Of a stretch of 64,000 bases of DNA, positions 7,309 to 54,956 are shown piece after piece. Positions within the stretch are counted from its first letter, which is position 1; every line of letters starts with the position of its first letter. The translations under genes and the position numbers were made by a program. The notes beneath the pieces were generated by a model. That model was not told where the DNA came from. It made no database searches and worked only from the letters and a program-made list of their open reading frames with translations. This stretch comes from Candidatus Hodarchaeaceae archaeon (lineage in GTDB: Archaea; Hadarchaeota; Hadarchaeia; Hadarchaeales; Hadarchaeaceae), in NCBI GenBank assembly GCA_030018135.1, contig JASEGJ010000002.1:1230-65229 (forward strand), written 5' to 3'.

Positions 7309-7333
7309 GGGGAGCGCGCCTACTGAAGTAATC
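7309..7333 (-). promoter_or_regulatory. degenerate fourth copy of the GATTACTTTCRGT...CTCCCC element
   Basis: In gene orientation it reads GATTACTTCAGTAGGCGCGCTCCCC, upstream of the MgtE-like/PhoU operon. Only the two flanks match the three good copies. Confidence 0.3.
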
Positions 7334-10550: not shown

Positions 10551-10642
10551 GAGCCGCCGGTGGGTCATGATCCCACGACCTATCGCTTACGAGGCGATCG
10601 CTTTTGGCGTGCCGAAGCACCCTGCCAGCTGAGCTACGGCGG
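10551..10642 (-). tRNA. tRNA-Thr (anticodon CGU) with a putative ~19-nt non-canonical intron in the D-arm
   Basis: Hand fold: acceptor GCCGCCG/CGGCGGC, anticodon arm ATCGC-CTCGTAA-GCGAT, T arm GTGGG-ATCATGA-CCCAC. A canonical D arm (GCTC...GAGC) appears only after removing GGTGCTTCGGCACGCCAAA (10602-10620). No CCA is encoded. Confidence 0.65.
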
Positions 10643-10726
10643 CCCAATTAACATTTGCCGAAACTTAACTTAACCATTTTCCCAAAGCAATCTTCAGTAA
10701 GGCGCTGCTAAAACAGTTTATTTGCC

Positions 10727-10815
10727 ATGGCGCCGGGGCAGGGATTTGAACCCTGGCGACCCGAAGGGTCAACAGATCTCGAGTCTGCCGCCTTACCTGG
10801 CTTGGCTACCCCGGC
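10727..10815 (-). tRNA. tRNA-Ser (anticodon CGA), class II, CCA encoded
   Basis: Hand fold: acceptor GCCGGGG/CCCCGGC, 3-bp D stem, anticodon loop CTCGAGA, long variable arm ACCC-TTCG-GGT, T stem CAGGG/CCCTG. As assembled the T loop is 8 nt (TTCAAATC). Confidence 0.85.
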
Positions 10816-13800: not shown

Positions 13801-14281
13801 CGGTGAGGACGGCTAAGGCCGCGGCCGTTCCGCCTGCGGATCTGATCGGCCCGGCGAAGTAGATGGCGAGGTAAGGGGAATCATCGAAGTTTCTCCTTAT
13901 CTCCACATGGGTTATGCCCTCGATGGGGGCCGCCGCTGCTATGCCCTCGGTTATGATCGCCAAGGAAGTTCGGATTGCCTGCTCGGCCGCTTGCTTATCC
14001 TCAAATTCGCCGAAGTGCCCATCGACTATCATCTCCGCAACTTTAAGCGCGAGTTCTTCTCGCGGTAGCCCCTTCTCGAGTTCGCGGATGGCCCCGGCTA
14101 CGCCGGGCGGCCCGACCAGCTTCTCGACGCGAGCGGCCAAGTCCTCGGCTCTGGGGATCTCCGGCTCCAGTTCCGGATCTAGGCCAAGCGAGCGGGCTTT
14201 CCTAGCTATCTCGTACGCTTCTTCCACCTTGCCCTCAAGGCTTCTGAAGTAGACCATCATATCCGGGCTTGCAACGATCAT
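10850..14281 (-). CDS. polC: DNA polymerase II (PolD) large subunit DP2
   Basis: 1143-aa protein with typical DP2 blocks and the Cys clusters CPECGE...CPKCG and CVACN...CGKCGG. Confidence 0.97.
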   Translation of the reverse strand: MIVASPDMMVYFRSLEGKVEEAYEIARKARSLGLDPELEPEIPRAEDLAARVEKLVGPPGVAGAIRELEKGLPREELALKVAEMIVDGHFGEFEDKQAAEQAIRTSLAIITEGIAAAAPIEGITHVEIRRNFDDSPYLAIYFAGPIRSAGGTAAALAVLTGDFVRRKFYLGPYKPTDDEIERFIEEVDLYATDVAHLQYTPPSPDDIRAAVRNIPVEITGEPTERGVTVTGYRDIKRIGHNMVRGGAVLALVEGVLQKAPKILKHVRRLNIDGWDWLSDLVARAPSAEETGPVYPKGGKYLEEIIAGRPVLAHPDRAGGFRLRYGRARNTGIAAAGIHPATMAVLDDFLAVGTQLKIERPGKGAAVAPVNSIEGPIVKLIDGSVVQVNSVEQAIELRDGISEILFLGDILLGFGEFLENNHPLMPAGYCETWWSQEVKKALAQRELEIDATPYVTSPYQRPPPDLAVEISEKLGVPLHPAYTYHFHDISVEELKELGSWLSKGEPEFEAGRLKRIRVKIDPGPKRLLEVLGVPHMVGDGHVIIEDPALPLCRCLGLLDGNMLTDEKLNSTLSSHPTKEVMVLVQALAGFPVRWKAPTRIGCRMGRPEKANPRVMSPPVHLLFGVGLAGGATRSVIKAAEGGEVFVEVARLECPECGEVTFSRKCPKCGAITNYSRICTRCGRPSGEDRCLACNAPTAYFDQRRINVKSLLEGALRRLGEAPPDELKGVRGMTSAYKIPEPLEKGILRAKRGIYVFKDGTVRFDATDLPLTHFRPREIGTPIERLRELGYINDCDGRPLERDDQLVELKVQDVLLSRACADYLLRASKFIDELLQKFYGLPPFYNATWPGDLVGHLVIGLAPHTSAGIVGRVVGFTDANVGYAHPYFHAAKRRNADGDEDAVMLLLDALLNFSKRFLPSTRGGTMDAPLVLTTRLDPAEIDEEAHNMDVMMAYPLEFYEATLRSASPSELLATMETVKRRLGTRAQYEGLKFSYDTSDISSGPRSSRYKTLETMIEKTAAQLSLARKIRAVDERDVAERLIEHHFIPDLKGNLRAFSSQQFRCVACNAKHRRVPLSGVCGKCGGKLVLTVTRGGVEKYLQVAMQIAQEYSVSDYTKQRLKLTQRDIRSVFESDAHRQLSLADFL

Positions 14282-15093
14282 CGGCTCACCACCAAGTGCT
14301 TAATATTCGGGATGACGAAATCTGGGGCCATCCTCGTACCTCTAACCCGCCTGACATCGCCCTCCGTGCTCACGCCGCTCAAAACCAATATCGTCGTGAG
14401 CCCGGCCCTCTTACCCGCCCTTACATCAGTATCAAGCCTATCTCCAACTATCGCCGTCTCGCTGGGCATCGAGCCAAGTAAATCGAGCAAAAATTTTATC
14501 ATGTGCTGTGAGGGCTTGCCTATTACCACCCTCGGCCGCTTGCCGGACGCGCCGGTCAACGCACCCACCATCGCGCCTGCGCCCGGACAAAGGCCCGTCT
14601 CAGTTGGGTATGCGCCATCCACATTTGTCGCTATTAGCTCCGCGCCAGCGAGGAGAGCTCGCAAACCAGCCGTCAATCTTTCATAATTCAGGGTTCGGTC
14701 CATGCCCACCACCACATGCGTGGCCTCCGCGGCGCGATCGTCCGCCAAGAGCTCCAAGCCTGCCCGCCTCAGCTCCTGTTTTAGCCCTGGCTCCCCAATT
14801 ACATGGATTCTCGCGCGGGGTGCGCGTCTGCGCAGGTAGAGCGAGGTCACATGTGCGGAAGTTACCACCTCAGACTCACGTGCGGCTATGCCCATGCGCG
14901 CGAGTTTGCGTACGTACGCACTCCGTGTGTAGGCCGAATTATTGGTTGAAAATACCAACTTTTTACCCATCGCTCGAAGGCGCTCCACCGCTTCGGCTGC
15001 GCCCTCTATTGGAGTATCGCCGATGTAGAGCACGCCATCCATGTCGAGGATGAACGCTGAAAGCCTGTCCACGACAGCCGCGAGCTTATGCAA
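14278..15093 (-). CDS. HAD-IIA family phosphatase (NagD/PNPPase-like)
   Basis: Motif I FILDMDGVLY, then STNNS and the C-terminal GDRLDTD motif. Overlaps DP2 by 4 nt and DP1 by 8 nt. Confidence 0.85.
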   Translation of the reverse strand: MHKLAAVVDRLSAFILDMDGVLYIGDTPIEGAAEAVERLRAMGKKLVFSTNNSAYTRSAYVRKLARMGIAARESEVVTSAHVTSLYLRRRAPRARIHVIGEPGLKQELRRAGLELLADDRAAEATHVVVGMDRTLNYERLTAGLRALLAGAELIATNVDGAYPTETGLCPGAGAMVGALTGASGKRPRVVIGKPSQHMIKFLLDLLGSMPSETAIVGDRLDTDVRAGKRAGLTTILVLSGVSTEGDVRRVRGTRMAPDFVIPNIKHLVVSR

Positions 15094-16654
15094 AGTATAT
15101 CGCCCTGGTTTGACCCGTCTGCAAATCTATAATCGGCACTATCCCTGGCGTCGGCTTTACGCCCAAGCGCTTCATGTAGCTAGTCATCTCCTGGAAGGTG
15201 CCAGAGTTCACGACGGTAATATCGCGATATTTCTCGTAACCATAAACATGCATGTGACCGCAGTGAAAAACATCGGGCACATCCTCGATCACCAAATAAT
15301 CCTTGTCCTCTGGCGCTATTGCGGTGCGACCGCCGTATATCGGAGCGAGATGCCTTTTTTGGAGCATCTTGATCATCGATGAGGTCGGCTTCTCACGATT
15401 TAATCCCGGCACCATTGCCACTAGATCGTCGAAGCTTCTGCCGTGATACACGAGAAATCTGACCCCATGTATCAGTAGCCATGCCGGGTTGCCGACCATC
15501 AAGGAATTTAAATCATAAAGGGCTGATGTGACATCCCTTGGCAGGGCTGGCTGTGGCTCGGATGGGCGGACCGCATCGTGGTTGCCGGGGGCTATTATTA
15601 GCGTTATGTGGTCGGGAATCTGAGCGAGTAGTTCGGTTGCTGCCTCATATTGCCTGAAAATATCGTGGATGAGGAGCTCCTCCTCCTGTTGAGGGTAGAC
15701 GCCGACTCCGTCAACGAGGTCGCCAGCAATAACAACATACTTGACCCGCCCGGCAAGCTCACGTTGCTCGGGGTTGCCGACCTCGCCCCGTAACCACTTC
15801 AAAAACTTCATGAACGCGTCCTCCAGAAACATCTCGCTGCCCACATGGAGATCAGATAACAACGCCGCGCACACGGGATCTGCCGCACAGGAGGGCTCCC
15901 GCGGGGTTGGCACATCCGGCCAAATGATGTCAATCGCGATCAAACGCGGCGCGGCGTCGCCCTTGCGCAGCATTGCCTCGATTCCTATTACCTCATCTGT
16001 GACCACCTCGGCCGCCTTTCGCATGAGTTCGCGGCGCCCTTTGAATATCCAAGCCGTTGCCCTCCCGCTCAGATCCTCGAGTTCCAACACGATGTGGCCG
16101 CTTCTTGTTTCGCGCTTGTCCGCAACTATCCCAATGACCCTAACCGCGTCGCCATCGTCATAAGCGGTTAAGCTACTGATCGGCACTGCCTCGTGCAGGT
16201 CCACCCTCTTTCGTAGCATATTGCTTAGCCTGTCGTAACGATCCTTAAACAGCTTCACAAAATCCTTTAGCTCCCCCTCGCTGTAGCTGTGTCCAGTTAT
16301 GTCCTTCAACAACTCGATGCGGGGTTCGACATCGGCCGCTTGAGGCTTAAATTTCAAGTGAACCAGTTCTGGTACGGTTCTGGTCGGCCCCTCAACCACC
16401 GCAGTCTCTTGTCTTTCGATGGCCAGATAGCTACTTGACGGTGGCTGATGCCTGGTCTCGATGTCAACCTCCAAAATTTTTGTAACGAGGCCCTCCGTGA
16501 GCACCGGAGGTTTATCCACCATTTCCCTGAGATAAGTCAATACTCGCTCAACCGCCGATTGGCTATCCGTTTGTTTGCGCAGGGTATCTAGGGCGCCCGG
16601 CGTGATGTGAATGTCCGTATCCATAAGCCTGCGGATTATTGAAACCTCGTCCAT
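15086..16654 (-). CDS. polB: DNA polymerase II (PolD) small subunit DP1
   Basis: OB and calcineurin-like phosphoesterase domains (VIAGDLVDGVG, APGNHD, FHCGHMHV). Confidence 0.95.
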   Translation of the reverse strand: MDEVSIIRRLMDTDIHITPGALDTLRKQTDSQSAVERVLTYLREMVDKPPVLTEGLVTKILEVDIETRHQPPSSSYLAIERQETAVVEGPTRTVPELVHLKFKPQAADVEPRIELLKDITGHSYSEGELKDFVKLFKDRYDRLSNMLRKRVDLHEAVPISSLTAYDDGDAVRVIGIVADKRETRSGHIVLELEDLSGRATAWIFKGRRELMRKAAEVVTDEVIGIEAMLRKGDAAPRLIAIDIIWPDVPTPREPSCAADPVCAALLSDLHVGSEMFLEDAFMKFLKWLRGEVGNPEQRELAGRVKYVVIAGDLVDGVGVYPQQEEELLIHDIFRQYEAATELLAQIPDHITLIIAPGNHDAVRPSEPQPALPRDVTSALYDLNSLMVGNPAWLLIHGVRFLVYHGRSFDDLVAMVPGLNREKPTSSMIKMLQKRHLAPIYGGRTAIAPEDKDYLVIEDVPDVFHCGHMHVYGYEKYRDITVVNSGTFQEMTSYMKRLGVKPTPGIVPIIDLQTGQTRAIYFA

Positions 16655-16663
16655 ATCTACACC

Positions 16664-17950
16664 TTACATAAGCGTGAGCTGGCGCGGCAGCGTGAGTGCC
16701 TCCAAACCGCTGATGGAATAATCCTCTTGAATTGCCGCCCTTGCCTGTATCGCTTGGATATTCATGGTAATCTCTTTGGTTCTGCCGTACCGCCCCTTAC
16801 TGATGATACAAGCATTTATTATCCCCATCATGTCAAGCTCTGAAATCAAATCGCTGACGCGGCGGGAGGTCAGGATATCCAGACCGCTCTGACGGCATAG
16901 CATGCAGTAAACGCTGTAAACGTCCCCAGTGACGATCCTGCGGGCCCCGCGCTCCCCGAGGAGTATGATGCTGTATAGGACGAGCTTGGATTGCGTCGGC
17001 AGCGTGCGGATGACCTCCAGCATTTTGTCCTGTTCGATCTTCTGGAATGCGCGCCTGACATGTTCAACTGTAATCATTTCGGCCCCCTCTCGCTCTCCAA
17101 GTTCACCTGCGACGCGTAGCAAGTCAAGCGCCCGCCGCGCGTCTCCATGCTCTCTAGCTGCATGGGCCGCGCAAAGCCCTATCACCCCATTGTCCAAAAC
17201 GCCGTCGATGAAGCTCATCGCTGCTCGCTTCTCCAAGATGTCCTTGAGCTGCAGCGCGTTATAAGGCGGAAACACAAGTTCCTCCTCGCTGAGGCTGCTC
17301 CTTACGCGGGGGTCAAGGTATCCCATGAAGTTTAAATCGTTTGAGATGCCGACGATGCTGACCTTAGCGTTCTTGAGGTCTGAATTCATGCGGGTTAGGT
17401 TGTAGAGGACCCCATCGCCGCTCTTTAAGACCAGCTTATCTATTTCATCTAATACGATCACTGCAAGCTGTCTATCATGATCTATCGCATCGAAAAAGCA
17501 TCGATAAACCTGGTCCGTTGGCCATCCGGTCATCGGAACTTGTTGGGGCATGCCAAACGAGCTTAGGCATCCGTGGCCATACCTTTCGCGCGCCTTCTCG
17601 AGGAAGACATTTGCCAGCGTCGCGAGGATGCGATACTGCGTATTAACGATCTCGCAATTCAGGTAAACCACCTCAACTTTGCGTGGCGAACGGTCACTAA
17701 CCCTCTCAAGTTCCTTCGTCACGTATCTCACGGTTGCTGTTTTGCCCGTGCCCGTCTTGCCGTAGATAAACAAATTTGATGGTGTCTCCCCGCGCAGGGG
17801 TGCGGCGAGTATCCGCGCAAGCTGATGGATTTGCTCCTCACGGTGTGGTAGTTCCTCTGGTGTATAAGTTGGGCGCAGGTACTCCCTGTTTTTGAATATT
17901 GGTTTCGTTTCCAACAACATCTCGAATATTCCCTCCGAACTCTTCGTCAT
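16664..17950 (-). CDS. cdc6: Orc1/Cdc6 replication initiator
   Basis: AAA+ Walker A (GKTGTGKT), Walker B (VLDEID), C-terminal winged helix. Start placed at MTKSSEG; the longest ORF runs to 17983. Confidence 0.95.
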   Translation of the reverse strand: MTKSSEGIFEMLLETKPIFKNREYLRPTYTPEELPHREEQIHQLARILAAPLRGETPSNLFIYGKTGTGKTATVRYVTKELERVSDRSPRKVEVVYLNCEIVNTQYRILATLANVFLEKARERYGHGCLSSFGMPQQVPMTGWPTDQVYRCFFDAIDHDRQLAVIVLDEIDKLVLKSGDGVLYNLTRMNSDLKNAKVSIVGISNDLNFMGYLDPRVRSSLSEEELVFPPYNALQLKDILEKRAAMSFIDGVLDNGVIGLCAAHAAREHGDARRALDLLRVAGELGEREGAEMITVEHVRRAFQKIEQDKMLEVIRTLPTQSKLVLYSIILLGERGARRIVTGDVYSVYCMLCRQSGLDILTSRRVSDLISELDMMGIINACIISKGRYGRTKEITMNIQAIQARAAIQEDYSISGLEALTLPRQLTLM

Positions 17951-18443
17951 GTTTACCAGCCTCCTCTCCAGCTTTCTTTTCAAACAGCTTACTTAGCCAC
18001 TGGCTCCAGCCCTCCAGAGCGATAGCTAAACGATTGACCAAAAATTTCTCCTCTGGTGGCAGATTTTCCGCGCTCGCGGGCGAAAGCGCCGACTGCAAGA
18101 GTTTCTGAACCCGCACCTCCAGCAGGGCATCCACCGCTGATTGAAACTCCTCAACTTTGTCCTGCTGACCAGTAGCCCGCAGGTACGCGATTTGTTGTGC
18201 AATTGAACTGTAAAAGTCAGGGGGCAGGGGTTCTAGCTGGTGAGATCGTTCCTCGACCAGCACCAGCTTCCGCAGCTCTATCGTCGTAAGCCTTTGAATT
18301 GGCTCGATATAACCATGTCGCTCAAGTACGCCAGCTTCCCATGGCTCGAACTCGGCCTCCTGTCCAGCCACGAGCGGGCCTATCTGCCTACCCACCAATT
18401 TTATCGCCGGCAAATCCTTGATAACCCGAACGCGTTGTCCCAT
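17838..18443 (-). CDS. GINS subunit (beta-domain first, Gins23-like order)
   Basis: N-terminal small beta domain (VRVIKDLPAIKLVGRQIGPLVAGQEAEFEPWEAGVLERHGYIEPI), then a helical domain with LPPDFY. It sits between mcm and cdc6. The 3' end overlaps cdc6 by about 110 nt. Confidence 0.6.
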   Translation of the reverse strand: MGQRVRVIKDLPAIKLVGRQIGPLVAGQEAEFEPWEAGVLERHGYIEPIQRLTTIELRKLVLVEERSHQLEPLPPDFYSSIAQQIAYLRATGQQDKVEEFQSAVDALLEVRVQKLLQSALSPASAENLPPEEKFLVNRLAIALEGWSQWLSKLFEKKAGEEAGKHDEEFGGNIRDVVGNETNIQKQGVPAPNLYTRGTTTP

Positions 18444-18447
18444 GAAC

Positions 18448-20454
18448 TCACCTCACCGCGCGGCTGATCATGCCCGGCTTTGGCTCGTAAAGATGGCCCC
18501 TCATTTTCTCCTTGTCGATCATCTCATCGACGAAGGACTCCTTGATGCCCTCCAGCGAGGCGAGGCGCTTTATTTCACCGACGGGGGCTGCGCCACCATA
18601 TTCGCCCTCGAGGTCCTTGATTATATCCAGCACGCGCTCCAGCTTCTCACGCTGCGACCTGCTTTTCCCCGTCATCAAGACATCGATGTCCACCCTGCCC
18701 GTCTCCGGGTCTATACCCGCCTCGTGTAGCGATATCTTCACCAACTTAATCGCCCGGTTCGCGTCCTCGACAGTTATGCGGTCGCTCAAGCGCATCCTGG
18801 CATTGGCTTTTGTCAAACGCACGAGTGCCTCAAGTTGCCTAGCGGTGATTGGAAGCGGCATGTCTCCCTTTTCAGCGACTTTCCTCCACTCCACGAAGAA
18901 ATCCTCGATTGCTTTCAACGGCTCCTTACCCTCGAACTTTGGGTCGATGTACTTGCGTGCGTAAATGATTATCTTCCGCAAGGTGTCCATGTCGAGCGGG
19001 GGTTTAACAACTCGCGTTGGCTCGTGATGTAACTCGAGGATGTGGCGTGCGACGACGCGGTCCCGCTCAGCGAACGGCTCATCACGCATGATAAAGATCA
19101 GGTCGAAGCGAGAGAGGATCATCGGTGGCAAATTGATCTGTTCTGCGAGGGGTCTATACTTGTCGAATCTGCCGAGTGCTGGGTTCGCGGCGGCTAAAAT
19201 TGCGGTGCGGGTGTTAAGCGTTGCGACGATGCCTGCCTTGGCCACGCTGACCGTTTGCTGCTCCATCGACTCAAGAATGGCGCTGGCATCCTCTTCGCTC
19301 ATCTTGTCAAATTCATCTATGGCTGCAAGTCCTCCGTCGGATATCACCAGCGCCCCCGCCTCAAGTGCCCAACCGCCGCCTATCTCGTCCCGGACAGCTG
19401 CTGCCGTGAGCCCGGCTCCCGTCGCCTTCTTACCCGAAGTGTAAAGGCCCCGCGGCGCGACCAGCGACGCCCATTTTAGGACCTCCGACTTAGCTGTCCC
19501 CGGGTCACCGGTCAAAAGAATATGGGTATCGCCCCGTTTACGAGTGCCGTCCGGCAGATCTATCGCCGGGCACCCGAAGAGCTGTAGCGCTATGGCCTCT
19601 TTGATGGGCTCGTAACCGTATATGCTGGGTGCGATTGATTGAATGATTAAATTGCGGAGCCACTGATCCTTCGCCAGTTCTTTAATTCTTGCCTCGTCCT
19701 CTGGGCTGAGCTCCGCCTCCTCCACGCCCTTTTGTACGACCTCGATGTGGTTGACAAAAAGTATCTTGCGGAATGTCGTCTTACGTTGCCGTGGCATGCC
19801 CTCTTGAAATACGCGCAGGATTCCGGATATTATCACATGATTTCCGGGCACCGCTTTGTCGACGAAGTCGTCCTTTATAATTCCGTCAAGTTGGCGCGGC
19901 ATCCGCCCGCCGCGCAGTTCCTCCGGGCGCTCTTGAACTCGAATGCTCTGCCAATCCCTGAACTCAGAGCTTTCGATCTCAAGTTTGAACGGTCCTTTTC
20001 TTGAGCAATTCGGGTTCTCACAAATCAACGGTTCCCTGAATACCTCGTCAATCTGCATCACCCGATTTTCCTCACCACAACGCAAACACTTGAACACGGA
20101 TTCCTTGATTTCGGGCTTAACTTCGCTTACGCGCGTTATGATTCCCTCAACTTGGATGAACTTGCCGACCTGCGACGCGCGGATATCGCGTATGAGAGTG
20201 GCCTTATCTATGTTCTTAATGCGAAGATGCGCGCTAGGTAACTTGGTTATCTCCACCAAGATCGCGTCGGCTGTATCGAGGAAGTCGTTCGGGTGCTCCA
20301 GTAGGGCCTTAGCGAGTTCCATATCAAACTCGAGCAACCGCTCAAATTCGATGACGAGGGATTTTTGCCCCTTCGCCGCCAGCCTGCGGAGCTCCTTCAG
20401 AATCCCCCTGGCGTGTAGGAATTCCCCGAGCTTCTCTTTGACTGATGAATCCAA
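18448..20454 (-). CDS. mcm: MCM replicative helicase
   Basis: Zinc motif CLRCG...CENPNC, Walker A GDPGTAKS, Walker B AIDEFDKM, arginine finger SRFDLIF, C-terminal wHTH. A TTG start at 20454 is preceded by GGGGGT and gives about 668 aa. The longest ORF (to 20619) runs through AT-rich promoter-like DNA. Confidence 0.95.
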   Translation of the reverse strand: MDSSVKEKLGEFLHARGILKELRRLAAKGQKSLVIEFERLLEFDMELAKALLEHPNDFLDTADAILVEITKLPSAHLRIKNIDKATLIRDIRASQVGKFIQVEGIITRVSEVKPEIKESVFKCLRCGEENRVMQIDEVFREPLICENPNCSRKGPFKLEIESSEFRDWQSIRVQERPEELRGGRMPRQLDGIIKDDFVDKAVPGNHVIISGILRVFQEGMPRQRKTTFRKILFVNHIEVVQKGVEEAELSPEDEARIKELAKDQWLRNLIIQSIAPSIYGYEPIKEAIALQLFGCPAIDLPDGTRKRGDTHILLTGDPGTAKSEVLKWASLVAPRGLYTSGKKATGAGLTAAAVRDEIGGGWALEAGALVISDGGLAAIDEFDKMSEEDASAILESMEQQTVSVAKAGIVATLNTRTAILAAANPALGRFDKYRPLAEQINLPPMILSRFDLIFIMRDEPFAERDRVVARHILELHHEPTRVVKPPLDMDTLRKIIIYARKYIDPKFEGKEPLKAIEDFFVEWRKVAEKGDMPLPITARQLEALVRLTKANARMRLSDRITVEDANRAIKLVKISLHEAGIDPETGRVDIDVLMTGKSRSQREKLERVLDIIKDLEGEYGGAAPVGEIKRLASLEGIKESFVDEMIDKEKMRGHLYEPKPGMISRAVR

Positions 20455-20690
20455 GTTCGTTACCCCCAAGTGGCAATTGTCGAAAGGGATCCGATCCGGC
20501 TTATAGGAGTTGTCGTGCAAAAATTGAAGTTTATGTTTAAAAGAAAGGAAATTTTTAGATGCGGTTTGCTTATAGATGTGTAAATTTTTTTGATTGTCAA
20601 ATGCAATGCCCCTCCGCACTGAAACGGTCTAATTGGAAGCCCTATCCATCGAAGCCCCGTTGGTATCCCATAAAAATCCTTGAAAGCTGA

Positions 20691-20729
20691 TTTTAAAGCG
20701 TCTTTTGGGAGAGGTCACCGAAAGTAATC
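20691..20729 (-). promoter_or_regulatory. copy A of the GATTACTTTCGGTGACCTCTC..CCAAAAGACGCTTTAAAA promoter element
   Basis: Near-identical to the copies at 39615-39657 and 53051-53092. It ends in a TTTAAA TATA-like box pointing towards mcm. Confidence 0.55.
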
Positions 20730-20989
20730 CCAATTTCCATTTATGGGGGTTTTAAAATTCCTTTCAAAAATAACTTGATTTGGCCGAGATTTTCTATAAA
20801 ACAAGTTCAAATCTCTGAGTTCCAGACGAAGCACTTGAAATAACAGGAAATTTAGGTTTGAAAGCTTCGAGTTTTGACTTAAGCTTCCGATTTTAAATCG
20901 CTCCGAATCTTGATATGCTGCAAGCACGAGCCCCTCAAAGCCCCTGATGTGAAAAATGTTTGACTTTTGCCTAAAAGGGATGATTGGGC

Positions 20990-38419: not shown

Positions 38420-38716
38420 TTGGGGGGAAAATTGCGCAGGCTAGGTAAGGTCATGCATGTTACGAAGCGCGGGCTCGTGCTACGCGTCGAGGGGGTGCCG
38501 GAGCTCGGCAGGGCGGTATACGATGGGGAGCGCAGGCGCGTCGGCAGCGTGCTGGACGTATTTGGGCCCATCGGTAGCCCGTATGCGATGGTAAGGCCGG
38601 CCCAGGGCATGAGCCATGAGGACCTGACCGCGCTGATGGATAGGGAGTTGTTCACCAGAGAGAGGGAGTCGCATGGAAAGGGTGGAAAAGCAAAAGAAAT
38701 GCCCGGAATGCGGTAG
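38420..38716 (+). CDS. gar1: H/ACA RNP protein Gar1
   Basis: [16 protein letters not shown]...[18 protein letters not shown] is the Gar1 signature, and the conserved gar1-tfb gene order is present. Confidence 0.8.
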
Positions 38717-39593
38717 CGGAAAGCTCGTGCGTGATTACGAGCGGGCCGAACTGGTCTGCGCTACCTGCGGCTTCGTCATTTACGACAAGATCATGGACAT
38801 GGGGCCGGAGTGGCGGGCCTTCGACCAGGAGCAGCGGGACAGGCGAGGGCGGGTAGGGGCCCCCATGACCTACACCATCCACGATAAGGGCCTGTCGACC
38901 ATGATCGACTGGCGGGACAGGGACAGCCACGGCAAGAACCTGACACCCAAGCGGAGGGCGCAAATTTACCGCCTTCGCAAGTGGCAGCGCAGGATCCGCG
39001 TTTCGGATGCCACCGAGCGCAACCTAGCCTTCGCGCTGTCCGAACTCGACCGAATGGCGTCGCACCTCGGGCTGCCCCGCAACGTGCGGGAGGCGGCGGC
39101 GGTGATTTACAGGCGGGCGGTTGAGGAGAGGCTGATCCGCGGGCGGTCCATCGAGGGCGTCGCGGCGGCGGCGCTGTACGCGGCCTGCAGGGAGTGCAAG
39201 GTCCCGCGCACGCTCGACGAGATCGCCGAGGTCTCCCGCGTTGGCAAGAAGGAGATCGGGCGCAGCTACCGCTTCATAGCCAGGGAGCTGCTGATCCACC
39301 TGCGCCCGACGAGCCCGATCGACTACGTCCCGCGCTTCGGGAGCGAGCTGGGCCTGTCAGGCGAGGTTCAGTCCAAGGCGGTGGAGCTGCTCAAGGAGGC
39401 CAGCAATAAGGGGCTGACCTCCGGGCGGGGGCCGACGGGAGTCGCTGCGGCTGCGATTTACATAGCCAGCGTGCTCCAGGGCGAGAGGCGGACGCAGCGG
39501 GATGTGGCCGATGTGGCACGGGTTACTGAGGTCACCGTGAGGAACCGATATAAAGAACTCTGCGAAAAGCTCGGATTAGACGTAGAGCTTTAA
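38673..39593 (+). CDS. tfb: transcription initiation factor TFB
   Basis: N-terminal zinc ribbon CPECGS...CATCG, B-reader, and two cyclin repeats. Confidence 0.95.
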
Positions 39594-39614: not shown

Positions 39615-39657
39615 GATTACTTTCAGTGACCTCTCTCCCCAAAAGACGCTTAAAGCG
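39615..39657 (+). promoter_or_regulatory. copy B of the GATTACTTTCAGTGACCTCTCTCCCCAAAAGACGCTTAAAGCG promoter element
   Basis: Same sequence and same orientation relative to the downstream gene as copies A and C. The TTAAA box lies about 30 nt before the ORF start, and GGAGGTG lies just before TTG 39689. Confidence 0.6.
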
Positions 39658-39679
39658 ATGATGAGAGGGCTCCACGGAG

Positions 39680-40855
39680 GTGGTGAGTTTGAAGGAAATC
39701 GTTGGAGATCAGGATGGAGTTATCCTCGATACATTGGAGATGGTGCCGAGCGAAATTTCAGGGCGAAAAGTCGTTGCCAAAAGTTTAAGCAACAAGGTGG
39801 CCTTATATCCTCCCGCATCAGGGAAGTGGGGCGGAGGCAGAGAATCTAAAAAAGTCATCCTCAACAGAATCGTGCTATTGGATAGGCTGTTTTTTGAGGG
39901 ACTTGGGCTATGGCAAGGTGAAGGAAGCAAGGGCAAGGGTATCTATTTTTGTAACTCTAACTTGCAAATCATGCGCCATTTCTTAACGTTCGTCGAAGAA
40001 AAGCTAGGGTTACCAAGAGCTGACTTTAAAGTTACAGTCTGCACACCTCGCTCTAGCGAGCAGGATGAAATCAGAGAGAAATTGTCCGAAGTGCTCGGAG
40101 TTCCGATCAACAATTTCACAGCTGTGTGCGTCGATCCCAGAATCAATAAGGAAAACGTTCAGGTATACATTAACTCGATTGTACTAGTTGAACTGCTAAA
40201 GAATTTACATGAAAAGTTGAAGCCGTTGATCAGATCGAATACAGAGTTCGCGGCAGCTTACCTACGGGGCATATTTGCTGGAGAAGGCTCCGTGTTATTG
40301 AAAAAGTCCGGGGTTTTATTCCACGTTGACTTCGCTACCAAAGATGAAAGCTCAGTTGAGTTCTATAAACAATGCCTCGATCTTCTCGGAATTGCACATG
40401 GCAAATATATGGAACGGAGTCTAAAATTTCAAATCTATGGCCGGCGAAATTTCCAACGCTTCAAGGAGCTCGACATCCACACCCTGCACCCGGAGAAGCA
40501 TGTAAAGTTTGAACAAGGATTCGCAAACTACAAACGCACAAATGTGTTGGATGGTGAGGAAGCCCGATCGCTCATCATACAGCAACTCGCCTCGGGTCCG
40601 AAAACCTACGACGAGCTTGCGGCAGCGTTGGGTAAGGCTAGGACGACGATTCAAGCCCACCACATCCCGATCCTCGAACGCCGAGGCCTCTTGAAATGTG
40701 TCGGGAAGCGTGGTCAAGCTTCGCTCTGGGCCCTTACGGAAGGCAAAATAACTCCACCGCCAAATGTTAATCGAGCCCCATGCGAGGAACCTACGCCCTG
40801 CTCGTGCACGTGCCCTACGACCTCGCCGTCAGCGTGGGCGAGCTCGGCACGCTGA
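39680..40855 (+). CDS. LAGLIDADG-type (double-motif) endonuclease-like protein fused to a C-terminal winged helix
   Basis: Two LAGLIDADG-like motifs (LFFEGLGLWQGEGS and AAAYLRGIFAGEGS). C-terminal wHTH (LIIQQLASGPKTYDELAAALGKARTTIQAHHIPILERRGLL). Visibly AT-richer than its flanks. The last ~25 codons overlap the next gene and may not be real. Confidence 0.6.
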   Translation: MVSLKEIVGDQDGVILDTLEMVPSEISGRKVVAKSLSNKVALYPPASGKWGGGRESKKVILNRIVLLDRLFFEGLGLWQGEGSKGKGIYFCNSNLQIMRHFLTFVEEKLGLPRADFKVTVCTPRSSEQDEIREKLSEVLGVPINNFTAVCVDPRINKENVQVYINSIVLVELLKNLHEKLKPLIRSNTEFAAAYLRGIFAGEGSVLLKKSGVLFHVDFATKDESSVEFYKQCLDLLGIAHGKYMERSLKFQIYGRRNFQRFKELDIHTLHPEKHVKFEQGFANYKRTNVLDGEEARSLIIQQLASGPKTYDELAAALGKARTTIQAHHIPILERRGLLKCVGKRGQASLWALTEGKITPPPNVNRAPCEEPTPCSCTCPTTSPSAWASSAR

Positions 40856-41205
40856 GCTTCAACGCAGGCTACTACGCCTACATCGGCTCGGCGCTGGGCG
40901 GCCTCAAGGCGCGAGTGGGGCGCCACCTCCGAGCTGAGAAGAGGCCCCACTGGCACATCGACTTCCTCCTGGCGAGGAGCAGGGCTGTGGACATCGTCGC
41001 AGCCCCCTCTCGAACGCGAAGGGAGTGCGCGGTCGCGGGGGAGCTGGCAAAAAAACTCCAAAGCGTCAGAGGATTCGGCTCCAGCGATTGTGCCTGCCAG
41101 TCGCACCTTTTCTACAGCCCCGACTTCAACGAGCTCCTCAGGCGGGTGCTGCTGGGCTTCAGGGCGTGCGGGTTGAAGCCCGCCAAGGGTGGTCCGCTTG
41201 GGTAG
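40780..41205 (+). CDS. GIY-YIG superfamily nuclease, DUF123 family
   Basis: GTYALLV...GYYAYIGSALGGLKARVGRHL...HWHIDFL is the DUF123 (URI-like) signature. Confidence 0.8.
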   Translation: MRGTYALLVHVPYDLAVSVGELGTLSFNAGYYAYIGSALGGLKARVGRHLRAEKRPHWHIDFLLARSRAVDIVAAPSRTRRECAVAGELAKKLQSVRGFGSSDCACQSHLFYSPDFNELLRRVLLGFRACGLKPAKGGPLG

Positions 41206-41812
41206 GCGGTGGCAGCTCGAGCGGGGGCGGGACCACTTCTACCGCATGGCCAAGCGCGAGCGCTACAGGTCACGTGCGGCCTTCAAGCTGAAGCAGTTGG
41301 ACGAACGCTACAACCTCCTGCGCCGCGGGCATGTCGTCGTCGATTTGGGCGCCGCACCAGGGGGCTGGCTCCAGGTGGCCCGCGAGCGCGTGGGGGGCGA
41401 GGGCTTCGTGCTGGGCATCGACCTACAGGCGATAGCCGAGCTGCCGCACGAGAACGTCGCCACGCTCGTCGCCGACATCACCGACGCCTCCACGCCCGAG
41501 CTCATCATGGCGAAGTTGCCCAGGGCTGCTGACGTCGTGCTCTCCGACGCCTCACCCAAAATCTCAGGCGTTTGGGACGTCGACCAAGCGAGGTCGGTCG
41601 AGCTCGCCCGCTCCGCGCTGGCGATCGCAGATGCAATCCTAGCTCCCGGAGGAAAGTTGCTCGTCAAGGTCTTTCAGGGAGGGATGTTCGAGGAGCTGGT
41701 CGCCGAGGTGAGGCGGAGGTTCAGCTCCCTCAAGGTCACCAAGCCCGCCGCCTCGCGCAGGGGGAGCGCCGAGGTCTACGTCGTGGCGAAGGGCTTCAGG
41801 CGATCTCGATAG
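41189..41812 (+). CDS. rlmE: 23S rRNA 2'-O-ribose methyltransferase RlmE/FtsJ
   Basis: DHFYRMAKRERYRSRAAFKL, SAM motif VVDLGAAPGGW, and the K-D-K-E family layout. Confidence 0.9.
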   Translation: MVRLGRRWQLERGRDHFYRMAKRERYRSRAAFKLKQLDERYNLLRRGHVVVDLGAAPGGWLQVARERVGGEGFVLGIDLQAIAELPHENVATLVADITDASTPELIMAKLPRAADVVLSDASPKISGVWDVDQARSVELARSALAIADAILAPGGKLLVKVFQGGMFEELVAEVRRRFSSLKVTKPAASRRGSAEVYVVAKGFRRSR

Positions 41813-51414: not shown

Positions 51415-52053
51415 CTACTTTAGAACCTCCCCAGTTTTCAAATACCACAGGTAGAGGTCCAACTCAGCTAAGGATATGCCGAGTCTCTTCGCCAGCTTCG
51501 CCAGCTTCCCCTCGATCTCCAAATATTTTTTCCCTGTCAGAGTTTTCGGTGCCCGATCTATCATTCCGTGCTCGTGCATGACCGAGAGGATATGCCTATC
51601 CAAAATTGCTATGTCATCGAAGCCAACGTTCCTCAAAAAATGACTTGCCTCTTTGTAGCCGATGCCTTTTACATTTTTGACCAACCACTCCCTCGCGCTT
51701 TTGGCGTCCGAGAACTTTTTGATGATGTTTTTTATGTTTCTAAACCTTCTCGCCTCGCAGATGAACTCCGCCCTGTTGCTGTAAAATCTATGCCCCATTT
51801 TTCTGAGCCTGTTCATGAGCTCAATTTTTGATAATGTTGAGAACCCTTCGCTGCCCAACTCCCGCTGAATCTTTACTCCCAACTTGGCGGAGGAGTTGGC
51901 GGTTAGGATGCAAAAACAAAGCTCCGAGAACCATTCGTCCGTGCCTCTCCTCCCGAGCCCATTGAACATCCGCATTCTTTCGCCGACTATTCTGCTAACA
52001 TCGCCCGAGCTCAGCGCCTTCACTTGCTCGACAAGCGCGTCTGCGTCCATCAA
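51415..52053 (-). CDS. ogg: N-glycosylase/DNA lyase (archaeal Ogg2-type 8-oxoguanine glycosylase)
   Basis: HhH-GPD layout with VKGIGYKEASHFLRNVG...AILDRH. Confidence 0.82.
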   Translation of the reverse strand: MMDADALVEQVKALSSGDVSRIVGERMRMFNGLGRRGTDEWFSELCFCILTANSSAKLGVKIQRELGSEGFSTLSKIELMNRLRKMGHRFYSNRAEFICEARRFRNIKNIIKKFSDAKSAREWLVKNVKGIGYKEASHFLRNVGFDDIAILDRHILSVMHEHGMIDRAPKTLTGKKYLEIEGKLAKLAKRLGISLAELDLYLWYLKTGEVLK

Positions 52054-52191: not shown

Positions 52192-53022
52192 CTACGGCGC
52201 GGTCGCTTCCACCGCCGCATCGAGCTGCCCTTGCGTGAATTTTAGCAACTCGTGCGCAGTACATGGGGGTATCTTCCAATCGTGCATCGCTGCATCTACT
52301 GGGCTTGCATCGAGCACTGAAAAGTTTGCCACCTGTTCGGGCGCGAGCGGCAGCGATACCAAGCCCGACTTCGGATTGAGGCTCATCGGTGCCAACAAAA
52401 GACCTCGCCTCAACCGAAGTTCGGAGAGGAGGCAGGTGTCCAATCCCATTTTAACAATAATCTGGGGGCCAGTTGCATCGATGCAAAAACTAGAGCATCG
52501 CTCGATCAAATAGCCCGCAATATATCTCGTTAGCGTTCCCTGAATGTCGCTTAATACTTCCACGTTATCGAACCCCGCGTCGTAGGGGATCGCCTCGAGG
52601 GGGATGATGAGATCGAAGCCGAGTTCGCCGGAGTACTTGACCCATGGCTCGGAAAGCCCACCATCTGATAGCGCATCCAACACGGCGATCGTAACCTTTT
52701 TGGCGAAATTTAATCCGCCATTGGTCGAGCGAATGGTCCAAACCAAATCATGGCCGAGCGAATGGTGTGGCTCCCGCGGCTGCGCGTAGCGCCAGTAGGA
52801 TGCGTAAAAGGCCGTTGCGCCAGCGCGCAAAGCCAACTCTATCGTTGCCTCTGAGTCGAAAACCACCGGGCGCCCGCGCTCGGCATCCTCTGAGGTGAGG
52901 TAACGCTGTACGCTCTTGGTGCGTCGGTTGAAGAATGCGCACTCTCGCACGGCGGTGCCGTTGCCTGCACGCGCGAAATCCAGGATCGCCCGTTTGACGT
53001 CCGATCGTCTGTAGTAGTTCAT
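52192..53022 (-). CDS. PriS-like archaeo-eukaryotic primase (AEP) fold protein lacking catalytic residues
   Basis: Co-linear with PriS blocks: RECAFF (PriS REFGF), AFYASYWRYAQP...GHDLVWTIRS (PriS ...ELVFDIDA), YSGELGFDLIIPL (PriS YSGRGYHI) and LRLRRGLLLAPMSLNPKSGL (PriS LRLPSTLHSKVGL). Start at MNYYRR, preceded by GAGGGGAG. Confidence 0.6.
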   Translation of the reverse strand: MNYYRRSDVKRAILDFARAGNGTAVRECAFFNRRTKSVQRYLTSEDAERGRPVVFDSEATIELALRAGATAFYASYWRYAQPREPHHSLGHDLVWTIRSTNGGLNFAKKVTIAVLDALSDGGLSEPWVKYSGELGFDLIIPLEAIPYDAGFDNVEVLSDIQGTLTRYIAGYLIERCSSFCIDATGPQIIVKMGLDTCLLSELRLRRGLLLAPMSLNPKSGLVSLPLAPEQVANFSVLDASPVDAAMHDWKIPPCTAHELLKFTQGQLDAAVEATAP

Positions 53023-53050: not shown

Positions 53051-53092
53051 CTTTTAAGCGGTTTTGGGGGAGAGAGGTCACCGAAAGTAATC
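53051..53092 (-). promoter_or_regulatory. copy C of the GATTACTTTCGGTGACCTCTCTCCCCCAAAACCGCTTAAAAG promoter element
   Basis: Same element and same orientation as copies A and B. The TTAAAA box lies about 35 nt before the ATG at 53022. Confidence 0.6.
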
Positions 53093-53126: not shown

Positions 53127-53693
53127 TTAAACGGATTTTCTCAATATCGCAAGCTGAGTCTCGAGCTTGTTCGAGAATTCCTGATCATCAGACCAATCGA
53201 GGCGCACCAGTTCCTCCGCCGCCCGAAGTGTGCGATGGATGCGCTCGGTGACCTCTGGGCTAAGCCCGCCCCGCCCCGCAAGGCCGCAAAGTTCGGCGAT
53301 CTCGCTGGTGAGCGAGGTCTGCTCCCCATGTCCCACCAATATAGACCTGCCCAGCGCTTCTTCCATCGCCCTCAACCTCAGATCCGCTGGCAGTATTGCA
53401 TCAAAGCTATGGAGTTCCATCGGTTGCCAAGCCGGGCTTGAGAAGAATGAACTGAGCTTGGGTGCGGCTGCTGCTGGAACCGCTATGACGCTTTTTCCGA
53501 GCTTGAGGTGGGGGATGCCCGTGAGCAAGCCCGGGCTGATGTGCTGGTAAGTCTTCGTCGAGCCATCCCTGCCGAGGTACCTCACTCGGGTGGAAAAGCC
53601 GAAGAGTTTACGGTAAAACGATGTCCGCCTAGTGCCCGTGAACTTGATGTCAAAACTAAATACGTGGGCAAGGGTTTGGAGCCTTTTCGACAT
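53127..53693 (-). CDS. hypothetical protein (188 aa)
   Basis: Clean ORF with an apparently leaderless start about 25 nt after a GTTAAATTTT box. No family recognised. Confidence 0.5.
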   Translation of the reverse strand: MSKRLQTLAHVFSFDIKFTGTRRTSFYRKLFGFSTRVRYLGRDGSTKTYQHISPGLLTGIPHLKLGKSVIAVPAAAAPKLSSFFSSPAWQPMELHSFDAILPADLRLRAMEEALGRSILVGHGEQTSLTSEIAELCGLAGRGGLSPEVTERIHRTLRAAEELVRLDWSDDQEFSNKLETQLAILRKSV

Positions 53694-53733
53694 GTTTGAT
53701 ACATATGTAGCACAAAATTTAACTCTTCTCCTA

Positions 53734-53947
53734 CCCCTTTATTTCCAGTGGAAGTTTATTGTAAAACTATAACTCTTTTTTGATACATGTGTACAATAAT
53801 AACTATCTACTCAAAAATTAATTAAAAGTCCTCCAGAGGAAATGAAGGGTGGAGAATGACTCGATCTTAAAATGTGGTCGAATCCAAGATTGATGATGTC
53901 ATGCTCACAAAGCTTTTAGCGTTTTAACCCCCCTTCTCCAGTGGTGG
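53734..53947. other. candidate replication origin: three ORB-like boxes around an AT-rich unwinding stretch
   Basis: ORB-like boxes at 53734-53754 (minus: CTTCCACTGGAAATAAAGGGG), 53831-53852 (plus: CTCCAGAGGAAATGAAGGGTGG) and 53928-53947 (minus: CCACCACTGGAGAAGGGGGG). A ~76-bp AT-rich spacer lies at 53755-53830. Confidence 0.6.
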
Positions 53948-53999: not shown

Positions 54000-54956
54000 G
54001 TGGTGACGGAACAAGAGCTACGCGACCTGCTCGAGCGGAAGGTCCCGACAGTTTATTGCGGCTATGAGCCTTCCGGCAAGATCCACTTCGGCCATGCGTT
54101 GACGGTACGAAAGCTCATAGATTTCCAGGAGCTTGGGGCTCGGGTGATAGTCCTGCTAGCGGACCTGCACGCGTACCTAAACGACAAGGGCACGCTGGAC
54201 GAGATCCGCCGCATAGCCGACTACAACCGTCACTGCTTCATCGCCCTCGGACTCGACCCCAAACGCACCGAGTTCGTGGTGGGCTCCGACTTCCAGCTTC
54301 AGCCCAAGTATTTCATGGACGTTTTGCGGATGGCGGTCGACACCACGTTGCTCCGCGCGAGGCGGTCCATGGACATGATCGCGCGGCACCTCGAAAACCC
54401 GGATGTCGCGCAGGTGCTGTATCCCCTGATGCAGGCCGTCGACATGGCTTGGCTGGGCGTCGATGTCGCGGTCGGGGGGATCGACCAGCGAAAGGTTCAC
54501 ATGGTGGCGCGGGAGAAGCTCCCAGCCTTGGGCTATAAAAAGCCCGTCTGCGTGCACATGCCGCTGCTCCACGGCTTGGACGGCGCGGTGAAGATGTCCT
54601 CGAGCAAGGGGAACTTCATCGCGGTCGACGATGAGCCGGCAACAATCGAGGAGAAAATCGAGAAGGCCTTTTGTCCGCCGAAGCAGGTGAGGGACAATCC
54701 CGTCATCGAGTACGCGGAGCACGTCGCGCTCCCCGCCCTAGGTCACCTCGAGGTAAAAAGGTCGCCGCGCCATGGCGGACCGATTGAGCTCAAGGATTCG
54801 AGCGAGCTTGAAAGGCTGTACGCCGCAGGCGGGCTTCATCCAGCCGACCTGAAGGCGGCTCTCTCCGAGGCGCTCATCGAACTCTTGGCGCCGGTCAGGC
54901 GATATTTTAAAGAACACCCCAACGCTCGGCCGCCGGGGCCATCACGGGTGCTCTGA
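54000..54956 (+). CDS. tyrS: tyrosine--tRNA ligase (archaeal type)
   Basis: YCGYEPSGKIHFGH (HIGH) and KMSSSKG (KMSKS). The in-frame upstream peptide PLGEKLEPATRGTSEVV looks coding but has no start codon. GTG 53941 becomes in-frame if the C4 run at 53955-58 is one base longer. Confidence 0.92.
   Translation: MVTEQELRDLLERKVPTVYCGYEPSGKIHFGHALTVRKLIDFQELGARVIVLLADLHAYLNDKGTLDEIRRIADYNRHCFIALGLDPKRTEFVVGSDFQLQPKYFMDVLRMAVDTTLLRARRSMDMIARHLENPDVAQVLYPLMQAVDMAWLGVDVAVGGIDQRKVHMVAREKLPALGYKKPVCVHMPLLHGLDGAVKMSSSKGNFIAVDDEPATIEEKIEKAFCPPKQVRDNPVIEYAEHVALPALGHLEVKRSPRHGGPIELKDSSELERLYAAGGLHPADLKAALSEALIELLAPVRRYFKEHPNARPPGPSRVL

Follow-up and report, generated by a model that had tools for sequence, protein, structure and literature searches.

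Introduction

Transcriptional control of replication and repair genes in archaea is known mechanistically only for the Sulfolobales, where it involves Orc1-2 with its DNA damage-responsive element (DDRE) and the aCcr factors. The authors of the Orc1-2/DDRE work explicitly ask whether regulation of the Orc1-2 type exists elsewhere. In this study, we analysed a 64-kb stretch of a Hadarchaeota contig (hereafter the window; positions are counted along it), in which an element of about 40 nt precedes the replisome operon, a gene for a LAGLIDADG protein with a winged helix–turn–helix (wHTH) domain and a gene for a PriS-like protein. A literature search for the sequence itself found no publication. 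The element is described here as a putative promoter module, together with its conservation, the genes that it precedes, its resemblance to the DDRE and the proteins that might bind it.

Copies of the element in the window

The three copies of the element, designated A, B and C, are as follows.

20691-20729, minus strand: copy A; core GATTACTTTCGGTGACCTC at 20729-20711, a short tract TCCC, AAAAGACGC and TTTAAAA at 20697-20691
39615-39657, plus strand: copy B; core at 39615-39633 (A at the R position), tract TCTCCCC, AAAAGACGC and TTAAAG at 39650-39655
53051-53092, minus strand: copy C; core at 53092-53074, tract TCTCCCCC, AAAACCGC and TTAAAAG at 53057-53051

The window has three occurrences of the 21-nt core GATTACTTTCGGTGACCTCTC at no more than one mismatch, versus none in 100 dinucleotide-preserving shuffles, and the element is the strongest repeat within the window. 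In a three-way alignment the likeness ends sharply at about 40 nt, and the flanks of the three copies are unrelated. An earlier note on this DNA had reported these copies, and they lie where it placed them, with a chance expectation, from the shuffles, of none. The degenerate fourth copy that it proposed at 7309-7333 is not supported: the site does face an MgtE-like gene (6680-7240, minus strand), but its alignment score of 11 equals the best scores of shuffled windows (11-14) and a hidden Markov model (HMM) of the module is silent there at E <= 10. According to the HMM, three of the roughly 60 genes of the window carry the element.

Each copy is oriented toward the gene downstream of it, and the Pfam matches agree with the neighbours that had been described:

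10850-14281, minus strand: PolD large subunit, in the replisome operon (10850-20454) downstream of copy A; Pfam
15086-16654, minus strand: PolD small subunit, replisome operon; Pfam
16664-17983, minus strand: Orc1-1-type Cdc6; best match S. solfataricus Cdc6-1 (2QBY_A, 4e-106)
17838-18443, minus strand: GINS, replisome operon; Pfam
18448 to about 20454, minus strand: MCM, replisome operon; Pfam
38673-39593: TFB gene, immediately upstream of copy B
39680-40855, plus strand: LAGLIDADG_3 + HTH_5 (wHTH) protein, downstream of copy B; Pfam, synteny
40780-41205, plus strand: DUF123, downstream of copy B; Pfam
41189-41812, plus strand: RlmE/FtsJ, downstream of copy B; Pfam
51415-52053, minus strand: Ogg 8-oxoguanine glycosylase; Ogg-HhH Pfam match
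52192-53022, minus strand: PriS-like protein of 276 amino acids, downstream of copy C; predicted archaeo-eukaryotic primase (AEP) fold from a structure model

With the G of GATTAC taken as position 0, copy B is followed by a Shine–Dalgarno (SD)-like GGAGGTG (39676-39682) and by a start codon that is either GTG 39680 or TTG 39689 (+65 or +74), while copy C is followed by the ATG of the PriS-like gene at 53022 (+70). For copy A the distance to the probable MCM start downstream, a TTG near 20454, is about 275 nt.

Architecture of the module

The anatomy of the module was measured over 87-90 non-redundant instances, the origin of which is described below. The module of about 42 bp comprises, in this order, GATTACTTTCRGTGACCTC, a tract (TC)nC4-5 that is sometimes TCTGTGGG, the purine-rich AAAAnCGC and a TTAAAA-like box. 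Its upstream site spans 26 nt, is non-palindromic and consists of the heart TACTTTCG, then G-N-GACC and then the (TC)nC4-5 tract. Information content is zero at all positions upstream of the G of GATTAC, so that the left edge is sharp. The half without the TATA-like box is the most conserved part of the module; TACTTTCG and the positions A14, C15-16, C18 and C20 are all invariant or almost so in the 18 copies that were found by means other than the exact 19-mer.

The TATA-like box starts at +33, +35 or +37 (mode +35), in 2-nt steps that follow the number of TC repeats, and the sole consistent A/T-rich peak is at +34. Among 108 module-bearing instances, most are followed by an open reading frame (ORF) on the same strand at +44 to +125, the large majority at +60 to +75, and the starts lie mostly 25-40 nt past the TATA-like box. 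This spacing is alike in unrelated gene families and differs only at the MCM loci (about +250 to +280) and in a few truncated contigs. About 25 nt past the box there is a pyrimidine and then a G-run, often GGAGGTG or GGGGAG. In an archaeal core promoter the TATA box stands about 26-30 bp ahead of the transcription start site (TSS), and a TFB-recognition element (BRE) adjoins it on the upstream side. The TSS of the module would be expected at the pyrimidine and G-run, giving short leaders that begin at the SD sequence. The 3′ end of the module resembles a BRE and TATA box in sequence and position, as the earlier note had supposed, and the 26 nt in front of it would therefore lie upstream of the core promoter. 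This upstream box is very probably the binding site of a regulator.

The pyrimidine tract at +19 to +26 varies by whole TC units (TCCCC, TCTCCCC, TCTCTCCCC), with the spacings 33, 35 and 37, and this variation looks like replication slippage. In a subset of copies GTGGG replaces the C-run.

Conservation at orthologous loci

Orthologous loci were compared on contig stretches designated by L-numbers, of which L133-L137 were picked by protein similarity (45-64% identity), a choice unbiased for the DNA motif. All three window loci have syntenic counterparts in metagenome relatives at 70-80% nucleotide identity, and these keep the element, the neighbouring intergenic DNA having diverged. The element stands 256-280 nt upstream of MCM in L037, L053, L081, L091, L092, L119, L133, L136 and L137, and it precedes MCM in all three of the protein-selected loci that cover this region (L133, L136 and L137). 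The counterpart of copy B is kept in the syntenic L026, L051, L057, L069 and L086, again beside diverged intergenic DNA, and is present also in L140, which holds a 56%-identity orthologue. PriS-like orthologues are preceded by the element at no fewer than 17 motif-selected loci and at all five protein-selected ones, where its sequence is as follows.

L133: exact
L134: diverged, GAATACTTTCGGCGACC
L135: diverged, CAATACTTTCGGAGACC
L136: diverged, GAATACTTCCGGTGACC
L137: diverged, GAATACTTTCGCCTACC

The gene order shared by L133-L137 is ParA, tRNA synthetase, a small LAGLIDADG gene, PriS-like, Ogg ... SHMT, MCM–GINS–Cdc6. In L137 the copies before the PriS-like gene and before MCM carry the identical four-substitution variant. 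Because both copies share the same four substitutions, a common trans-acting factor may be supposed, and the variant is what would be expected of co-evolution with a single such partner.

Comparison of the orthologous loci, at 45-80% identity, indicates that the site is under purifying selection independent of the neighbouring sequence. Absence of the element from orthologous mcm operons had been named in the earlier note as a finding that would speak against its proposal; the element is kept there. The PriS-like and LAGLIDADG-wHTH loci, which it regarded as orphan or, alternatively, mobile cassettes, proved instead to be syntenic, vertically inherited Hadarchaeota genes. A cassette boundary, suggested by contig homology that seems to begin at GATTAC, was considered and rejected, loci A, B and C being syntenic orthologues whose intergenic DNA has merely diverged.

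Before the LAGLIDADG-wHTH gene of L140, the good copy is preceded at a distance of about 85 nt by a degenerate second one, CACTTTCGGTGATTTCTTCTCCACAAATTCGTTAAAC (9841-9880), a tandem arrangement seen nowhere else.

Distribution and downstream genes

A first scan with the exact 19-mer core over one genome per species gave 20 matches, six of them archaeal (two Hadarchaeota, three Hermodarchaeota and one Promethearchaeota), which is far above chance for so small a part of the collection. A metagenome scan returned 112 stretches, about 100 of which carry the whole module and not merely the queried core; no matches to the element were found in viral contigs. The downstream ORFs were clustered and annotated with Pfam:

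about 40 instances: LAGLIDADG proteins of several unrelated families (LAGLIDADG_1/2/3, some with HTH)
24 instances: TnpB-like proteins (Cas12f1-like TNB domain), at least two families
17 instances: PriS-like proteins
5 instances: MCM orthologues
1 instance each: ParB-N nuclease-like, Dcm, N4/N6 methylase, PLD-family nuclease, DUF763, HNH-like and methylpurine glycosylase (MPG)

Selfish genes follow about two thirds of the instances that were recovered. Contig L004, from Hadarchaeota, has the element in front of the genes for MPG, thymidylate kinase (Tmk) and Ham1. Between TnpB paralogues in different contexts, homology begins at about -50/-65, takes in a left-end hairpin and ends at about +1392, and the module is an internal part of IS200/IS605-like insertion sequence (IS) units of about 1.45 kb. 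It lies within at least two TnpB IS families, at 50-65 nt from the left-end hairpin. Features of a miniature inverted-repeat transposable element were not found: the copies have no inverted termini and a sharp left edge without a repeat, and they are gene-proximal and fixed in orientation. The scattering of copies irrespective of genes, which the earlier note had set against its own proposal, is therefore not seen, and its small regulon of three cassettes gives way to a phylum-wide module with more than 100 further instances.

The exact 19-mer core also occurs in Hermodarchaeota and Promethearchaeota contigs (L009, L010, L017, L062 and L099). In these Asgard contigs the core is flanked by a TTTAAATA box on one side and by a conserved hairpin with a CCTAAAAAAG box on the other, and the gene downstream encodes a conserved protein of about 330 amino acids that belongs to no known family. 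The occurrence may reflect a shared recognition code, transfer or chance. In L002 the core is situated between convergent radical-SAM and YcaO genes.

Resemblance to the DDRE and the Orc1/Cdc6 paralogues

The DDRE of the Sulfolobales, 5′-A(N)TTTC-3′, is bound by the non-initiator Orc1-2 (PMC5817253, PMC6061795, PMC9738581). In S. acidocaldarius this hexamer, which is exactly ACTTTC in upsE and upsA, lies upstream of the BRE at -44 to -39 and is essential for promoter activity (PMC5817253), and the extended consensus of the Orc1-2 footprint in S. islandicus is AATAGTTTCRGWDTACTCWS (PMC6061795). The core of the module agrees with the latter at 16 of 20 positions (17 in L135, and 14-17 over all variants), always in a single register and strand. 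All copies contain ACTTTC, within the invariant TACTTTCG, so that the hexamer identical to that of upsE/upsA falls in the most conserved part of the module. The module and the DDRE are both non-palindromic, both are situated upstream of a known or predicted BRE/TATA and both are tied to DNA repair and replication genes; the host lineage of the module, too, has a second Orc1/Cdc6 paralogue besides the initiator. The Hadarchaeota site differs in being much longer and far more strictly conserved. Its putative regulon lacks ups, ced and tfb3; what it has instead is the replisome operon, genes of base excision and a large number of selfish nucleases. The spacing also departs from that of the DDRE: the end of the hexamer is separated by 17 nt from the BRE-like AAAA and by about 25 nt from the TATA box, so that the hexamer falls at about -57 to -52 from the predicted TSS. 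By analogy the module would work like a DDRE-type upstream site; it is not filed as a member of the DDRE class because its spacing does not fit. An E2F-like motif (TTTSGCGC) and Thermococcales motifs were also considered, and gave no convincing match.

The Cdc6 of the replisome operon is not an obvious binder because it is an initiator of the Orc1-1 type. A second Orc1/Cdc6 paralogue, for instance at 1561-2763 of L031, is encoded outside this operon; it is 29% identical to the operon Cdc6, retains 54-97% identity across Hadarchaeota and has a synteny of its own. By analogy with Sulfolobus, it is at least as good a candidate binder as the LAGLIDADG-wHTH protein.

L142, which comes from the same genome as L136, has a third copy of the element (11213-11300) directly after the second orc1/cdc6 gene, and exactly 70 nt past this copy an uncalled, apparently decayed LAGLIDADG ORF begins (MFEQLSSEQCNKLLAVMLMTDGCL).

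Proposed function and alternative explanations

On balance, we regard it as probable, though far from settled, that the module is a regulator site just upstream of a BRE/TATA, that it defines a replication and repair regulon joined by selfish nucleases and that its likeliest binder is a non-initiator Orc1/Cdc6 paralogue, by analogy with Sulfolobus Orc1-2 and the DDRE. A sequence-specific protein would bind the 26-nt upstream site beside TFB and TBP and control initiation, by activation or by repression, and transcription would begin about 25 nt past the TATA box, roughly at the G-run or SD sequence before the start codon. The module would then mark a Hadarchaeota-wide regulon that includes the mcm–gins–orc1–polD operon, the AEP-like/Ogg pair beside the putative replication origin (described below) and MPG–Tmk–Ham1, and TnpB IS elements, free-standing LAGLIDADG genes and methylase or nuclease genes would have adopted it, presumably for co-expression with replication or repair.

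Several points weigh against this interpretation. Promoter function and the binding factor are, for Hadarchaeota, deduced from sequence. The metagenome instances were picked by the exact 19-mer, which inflates their identity and over-represents multi-copy genes. The predicted geometry is tight, since the SD-like G-runs begin almost exactly at the predicted TSS, and at MCM the module is 256-280 nt from the start codon and not 70 nt. Compared with Sulfolobus, the distance of ACTTTC from the TATA box is about 13 nt greater, and the likeness over the 20-mer is perhaps partly coincidental; its shuffle probability, 1e-4 to 3e-4 for the best copies, must be discounted several-fold, several known motifs having been compared informally. 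Among PDB entries, the second Orc1/Cdc6 paralogue matches A. pernix ORC1 (4e-50) better than ORC2 (7e-20) and is not clearly of the Orc1-2 class by sequence. No element was found upstream of its gene in L031, L142 or L143, and in this Sulfolobus orc1-2 differs.

The same promoter architecture could be read instead by the LAGLIDADG-wHTH protein, acting as a domesticated WhiA-like factor that recognizes the asymmetric 26-nt site together with the adjacent TFB, an explanation that we consider unlikely. Its family is, like the element, restricted to Hadarchaeota, with about 98 cluster representatives at 44-93% identity that look vertically inherited and roughly single-copy; however, the core 19-mer occurs also in Asgard contigs, where the family was not found. 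In every Hadarchaeota locus examined (including L138-L141) its gene adjoins a TFB gene, in tandem or convergently and even after inversion, which suggests either a functional partnership or a homing relationship; TFB could be the homing target, and the TFB of L140 carries a LAGLIDADG intein. The element precedes the LAGLIDADG-wHTH gene in the clade of the window and in L140 but is absent upstream of it in the three most distant loci, and the protein evolves faster than its neighbours (58% identity versus 94% for TFB). LAGLIDADG scaffolds typically read asymmetric sites of about 20 bp (reviewed in PMC3384342). The predicted structure (pLDDT 88) matches intein and I-DmoI endonucleases as well as full-length WhiA (3HYI, 3e-5), the bacterial LAGLIDADG-scaffold and HTH transcription factor, with which the copy B protein shares the same domain logic but no sequence-level relationship. 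Unlike in WhiA, both LAGLIDADG motifs keep their catalytic acidic residues (GEGS), and the protein may still be a nuclease.

Three further explanations were considered. The earlier note had raised the alternative that mobile cassettes share one promoter; this stands for the TnpB IS elements and the free-standing LAGLIDADG genes and fails for loci B and C. In its general form, a strong generic promoter would have been spread by IS200/IS605-type TnpB and homing-endonuclease genes and deposited before host genes with no dedicated regulator. Near-identical sequences in unrelated contexts, the location inside TnpB IS families and the preponderance of selfish genes downstream would follow from this, yet we find it quite improbable: the element is ancient and stable in position before MCM and PriS-like/Ogg phylum-wide, even between proteins of 45% identity; the copies of the L137 genome vary together; the most conserved half is the one that a generic promoter would not need; so few of the window genes use the module; and viral matches are lacking. 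It is very improbable that the 26-mer is a DNA target, that is, a recognition or insertion site behind which LAGLIDADG or TnpB nucleases home in. Such a target would fit the length and asymmetry of homing-endonuclease sites and the strong association with LAGLIDADG and TnpB genes, but the element also stands before core genes without an adjoining nuclease gene (MCM, MPG–Tmk–Ham1), is always coupled to BRE/TATA and mostly 60-75 nt from the start codon in unrelated families, and lies inside the IS units, not at their junctions; loci B and C, as syntenic orthologues, are not insertions.

Least credible is an action of the element as RNA, either as a 5′ leader whose pyrimidine tract pairs with the SD sequence or as a small RNA. 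Transcription could begin at GATTAC from an A/T box near -30, which occurs in all three window copies and in about 22% of all copies versus about 9% of the background, and the CCUCUCCCC tract is complementary to the GGGGAG or GGAGG before the start codons. There is, however, no conserved promoter upstream of the element, the TCTGTGGG tract variant keeps the same SD region and thus shows no covariation, and RNAalifold gives -1.4 kcal/mol with no compensatory pairs. Two specific forms were rejected on these grounds, namely a transcribed 5′ end set by the TTTAAATA box about 30 nt upstream in the Asgard and three window copies (no upstream positional information, and the -30 box in only 22%) and RNA pairing between the pyrimidine tract and the SD sequence (no covariation). 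Rfam gave nothing relevant in the window, only two tRNAs elsewhere.

A regulator site just upstream of BRE/TATA, our preferred interpretation, has counterparts among archaeal activators. Ptr2 is one activator whose site abuts a weak BRE. TFB-RF1/PF1088 in Pyrococcus (PMC5937170) and EarA at the fla promoter (PMC5512572) have sites of the same kind. The module site likewise lies immediately upstream of a predicted BRE/TATA, where these factors recruit TFB or TBP, and it is non-palindromic, as is that of TFB-RF1. Their sites serve one or a few operons in one genus, whereas the module recurs more than 100 times throughout a phylum and is also borne by mobile elements.

In bacteria, selfish elements place nuclease and recombinase genes under LexA, the host DNA-damage regulator of the SOS response. 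By analogy, selfish nuclease genes would be under a host damage or replication regulator in both cases; the domain of life and the regulator are different, and a link of the module to damage derives solely from its DDRE likeness. Taken further, Hadarchaeota might run damage- or replication-coupled transcription through an extended DDRE-like operator, read by an Orc1/Cdc6 paralogue or by the LAGLIDADG-wHTH protein with TFB, into which entire families of TnpB and homing nucleases would have been wired, a proposal that we put forward tentatively and hold to be doubtful. If true, it would be an archaeal counterpart of SOS-controlled mobile DNA; such a programme has otherwise been shown among archaea only in Sulfolobales, and the same core in Asgard contigs hints at a recognition code older than the phylum. 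With the module, an uncultured phylum gains a 26-nt site with sharp limits, two candidate binders and a set of presumed targets: the replisome operon, the AEP-like/Ogg pair beside the origin, and genes of base excision and nucleotide sanitation. One host regulatory signal is common to TnpB IS elements and to many free-standing LAGLIDADG genes, which bears on the timing of these RNA-guided and homing nucleases.

Putative replication origin and neighbouring genes

Three origin recognition boxes (ORBs) or ORB-like boxes are situated upstream of copy C.

53754-53733, minus strand: ORB CTTCCACTGGAAATAAAGGGGT, probable oriC
53830-53850, plus strand: inverted ORB CCTCCAGAGGAAATGAAGGGT, probable oriC
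53947-53927, minus strand: third ORB-like box, beyond the inverted ORB pair

About 75 nt of AT-rich DNA lie between the inverted ORBs, and the sequence suggests that 53733-53947 is a probable replication origin, about 640 nt upstream of copy C, between a Trp/Tyr-tRNA synthetase gene (54000-54956) and the PriS-like locus. The copy before the PriS-like gene is directly preceded by a canonical ORB (TTCCAGTGGAAAC-AAA-GGGGT) with an AT-rich stretch in L134, L136 and L137. In L136 and L137 the MCM copy, too, has ORB-like sequences upstream of it. From this arrangement, the Hadarchaeota origin probably adjoins the AEP-like gene and not orc1/cdc6. The motif together with its neighbouring ORBs also gives a practical means of finding the probable replication origin in genomes of Hadarchaeota. 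The element itself adjoins ORBs at oriC, precedes an operon that contains orc1 and has a short dyad (GGTGACC) and a C/G string, but the order and strand polarity of its dyad, TTTC and G-string differ from those of the ORB (TCCAGTGGAAAC-N3-GGGG). With genuine ORBs present separately nearby, the possibility that the element is an ORB was rejected.

An ORF of 188 amino acids without a Pfam match (53127-53693, minus strand) lies between the putative oriC and copy C. It is present in L027, L049, L108 and L125, and in other relatives, which are without it, the origin region is about 320 nt closer. Because similar short sequences (GCTACATATGTATCAAA and TTGCATATGTATAAAAA) occur at both of its ends, this suggests that the ORF is an insertion.

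The PriS-like protein of 276 amino acids has no Pfam match. Its AF2 model (pLDDT 85) shows an AEP fold, with Foldseek matches to LigD-Pol, Prim-PolC and PriS at E of about 1e-5. The family is limited to Hadarchaeota, every named one of its 160 matches being from Hadesarchaea or Hadarchaeum, and the PriS-like/Ogg gene pair is kept across the phylum. These named homologues, and those of the LAGLIDADG-wHTH family, also assign the window to Hadarchaeota. The protein may be catalytically altered, because its invariant residues include only the single aspartates D92 and D137 where AEP motif I normally has DxD.

Upstream of MCM, the ORF that begins at GTG 20619 is probably over-extended; the orthologues start with MDQALKEKLEKFL, which corresponds to the TTG near 20454 (20454-20619). 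This leaves an untranslated gap of about 235 nt between the TATA box of copy A and MCM, the length of which is kept phylum-wide and the sequence of which is not. Between SHMT and copy A, an 82-nt block at about 20817-20898 has 73-82% identity in relatives, the surrounding intergenic DNA not being conserved; the equivalent region in L136 and L137 holds ORB-like TTCCACTGGAAAA sequences. Possible roles for this block are those of a small RNA, a terminator region or a site for Orc binding. Two tRNA genes of 85-92 nt (10552-10643 and 10731-10815, minus strand) closely follow the gene for the PolD large subunit; both exceed the standard length and possibly contain introns.

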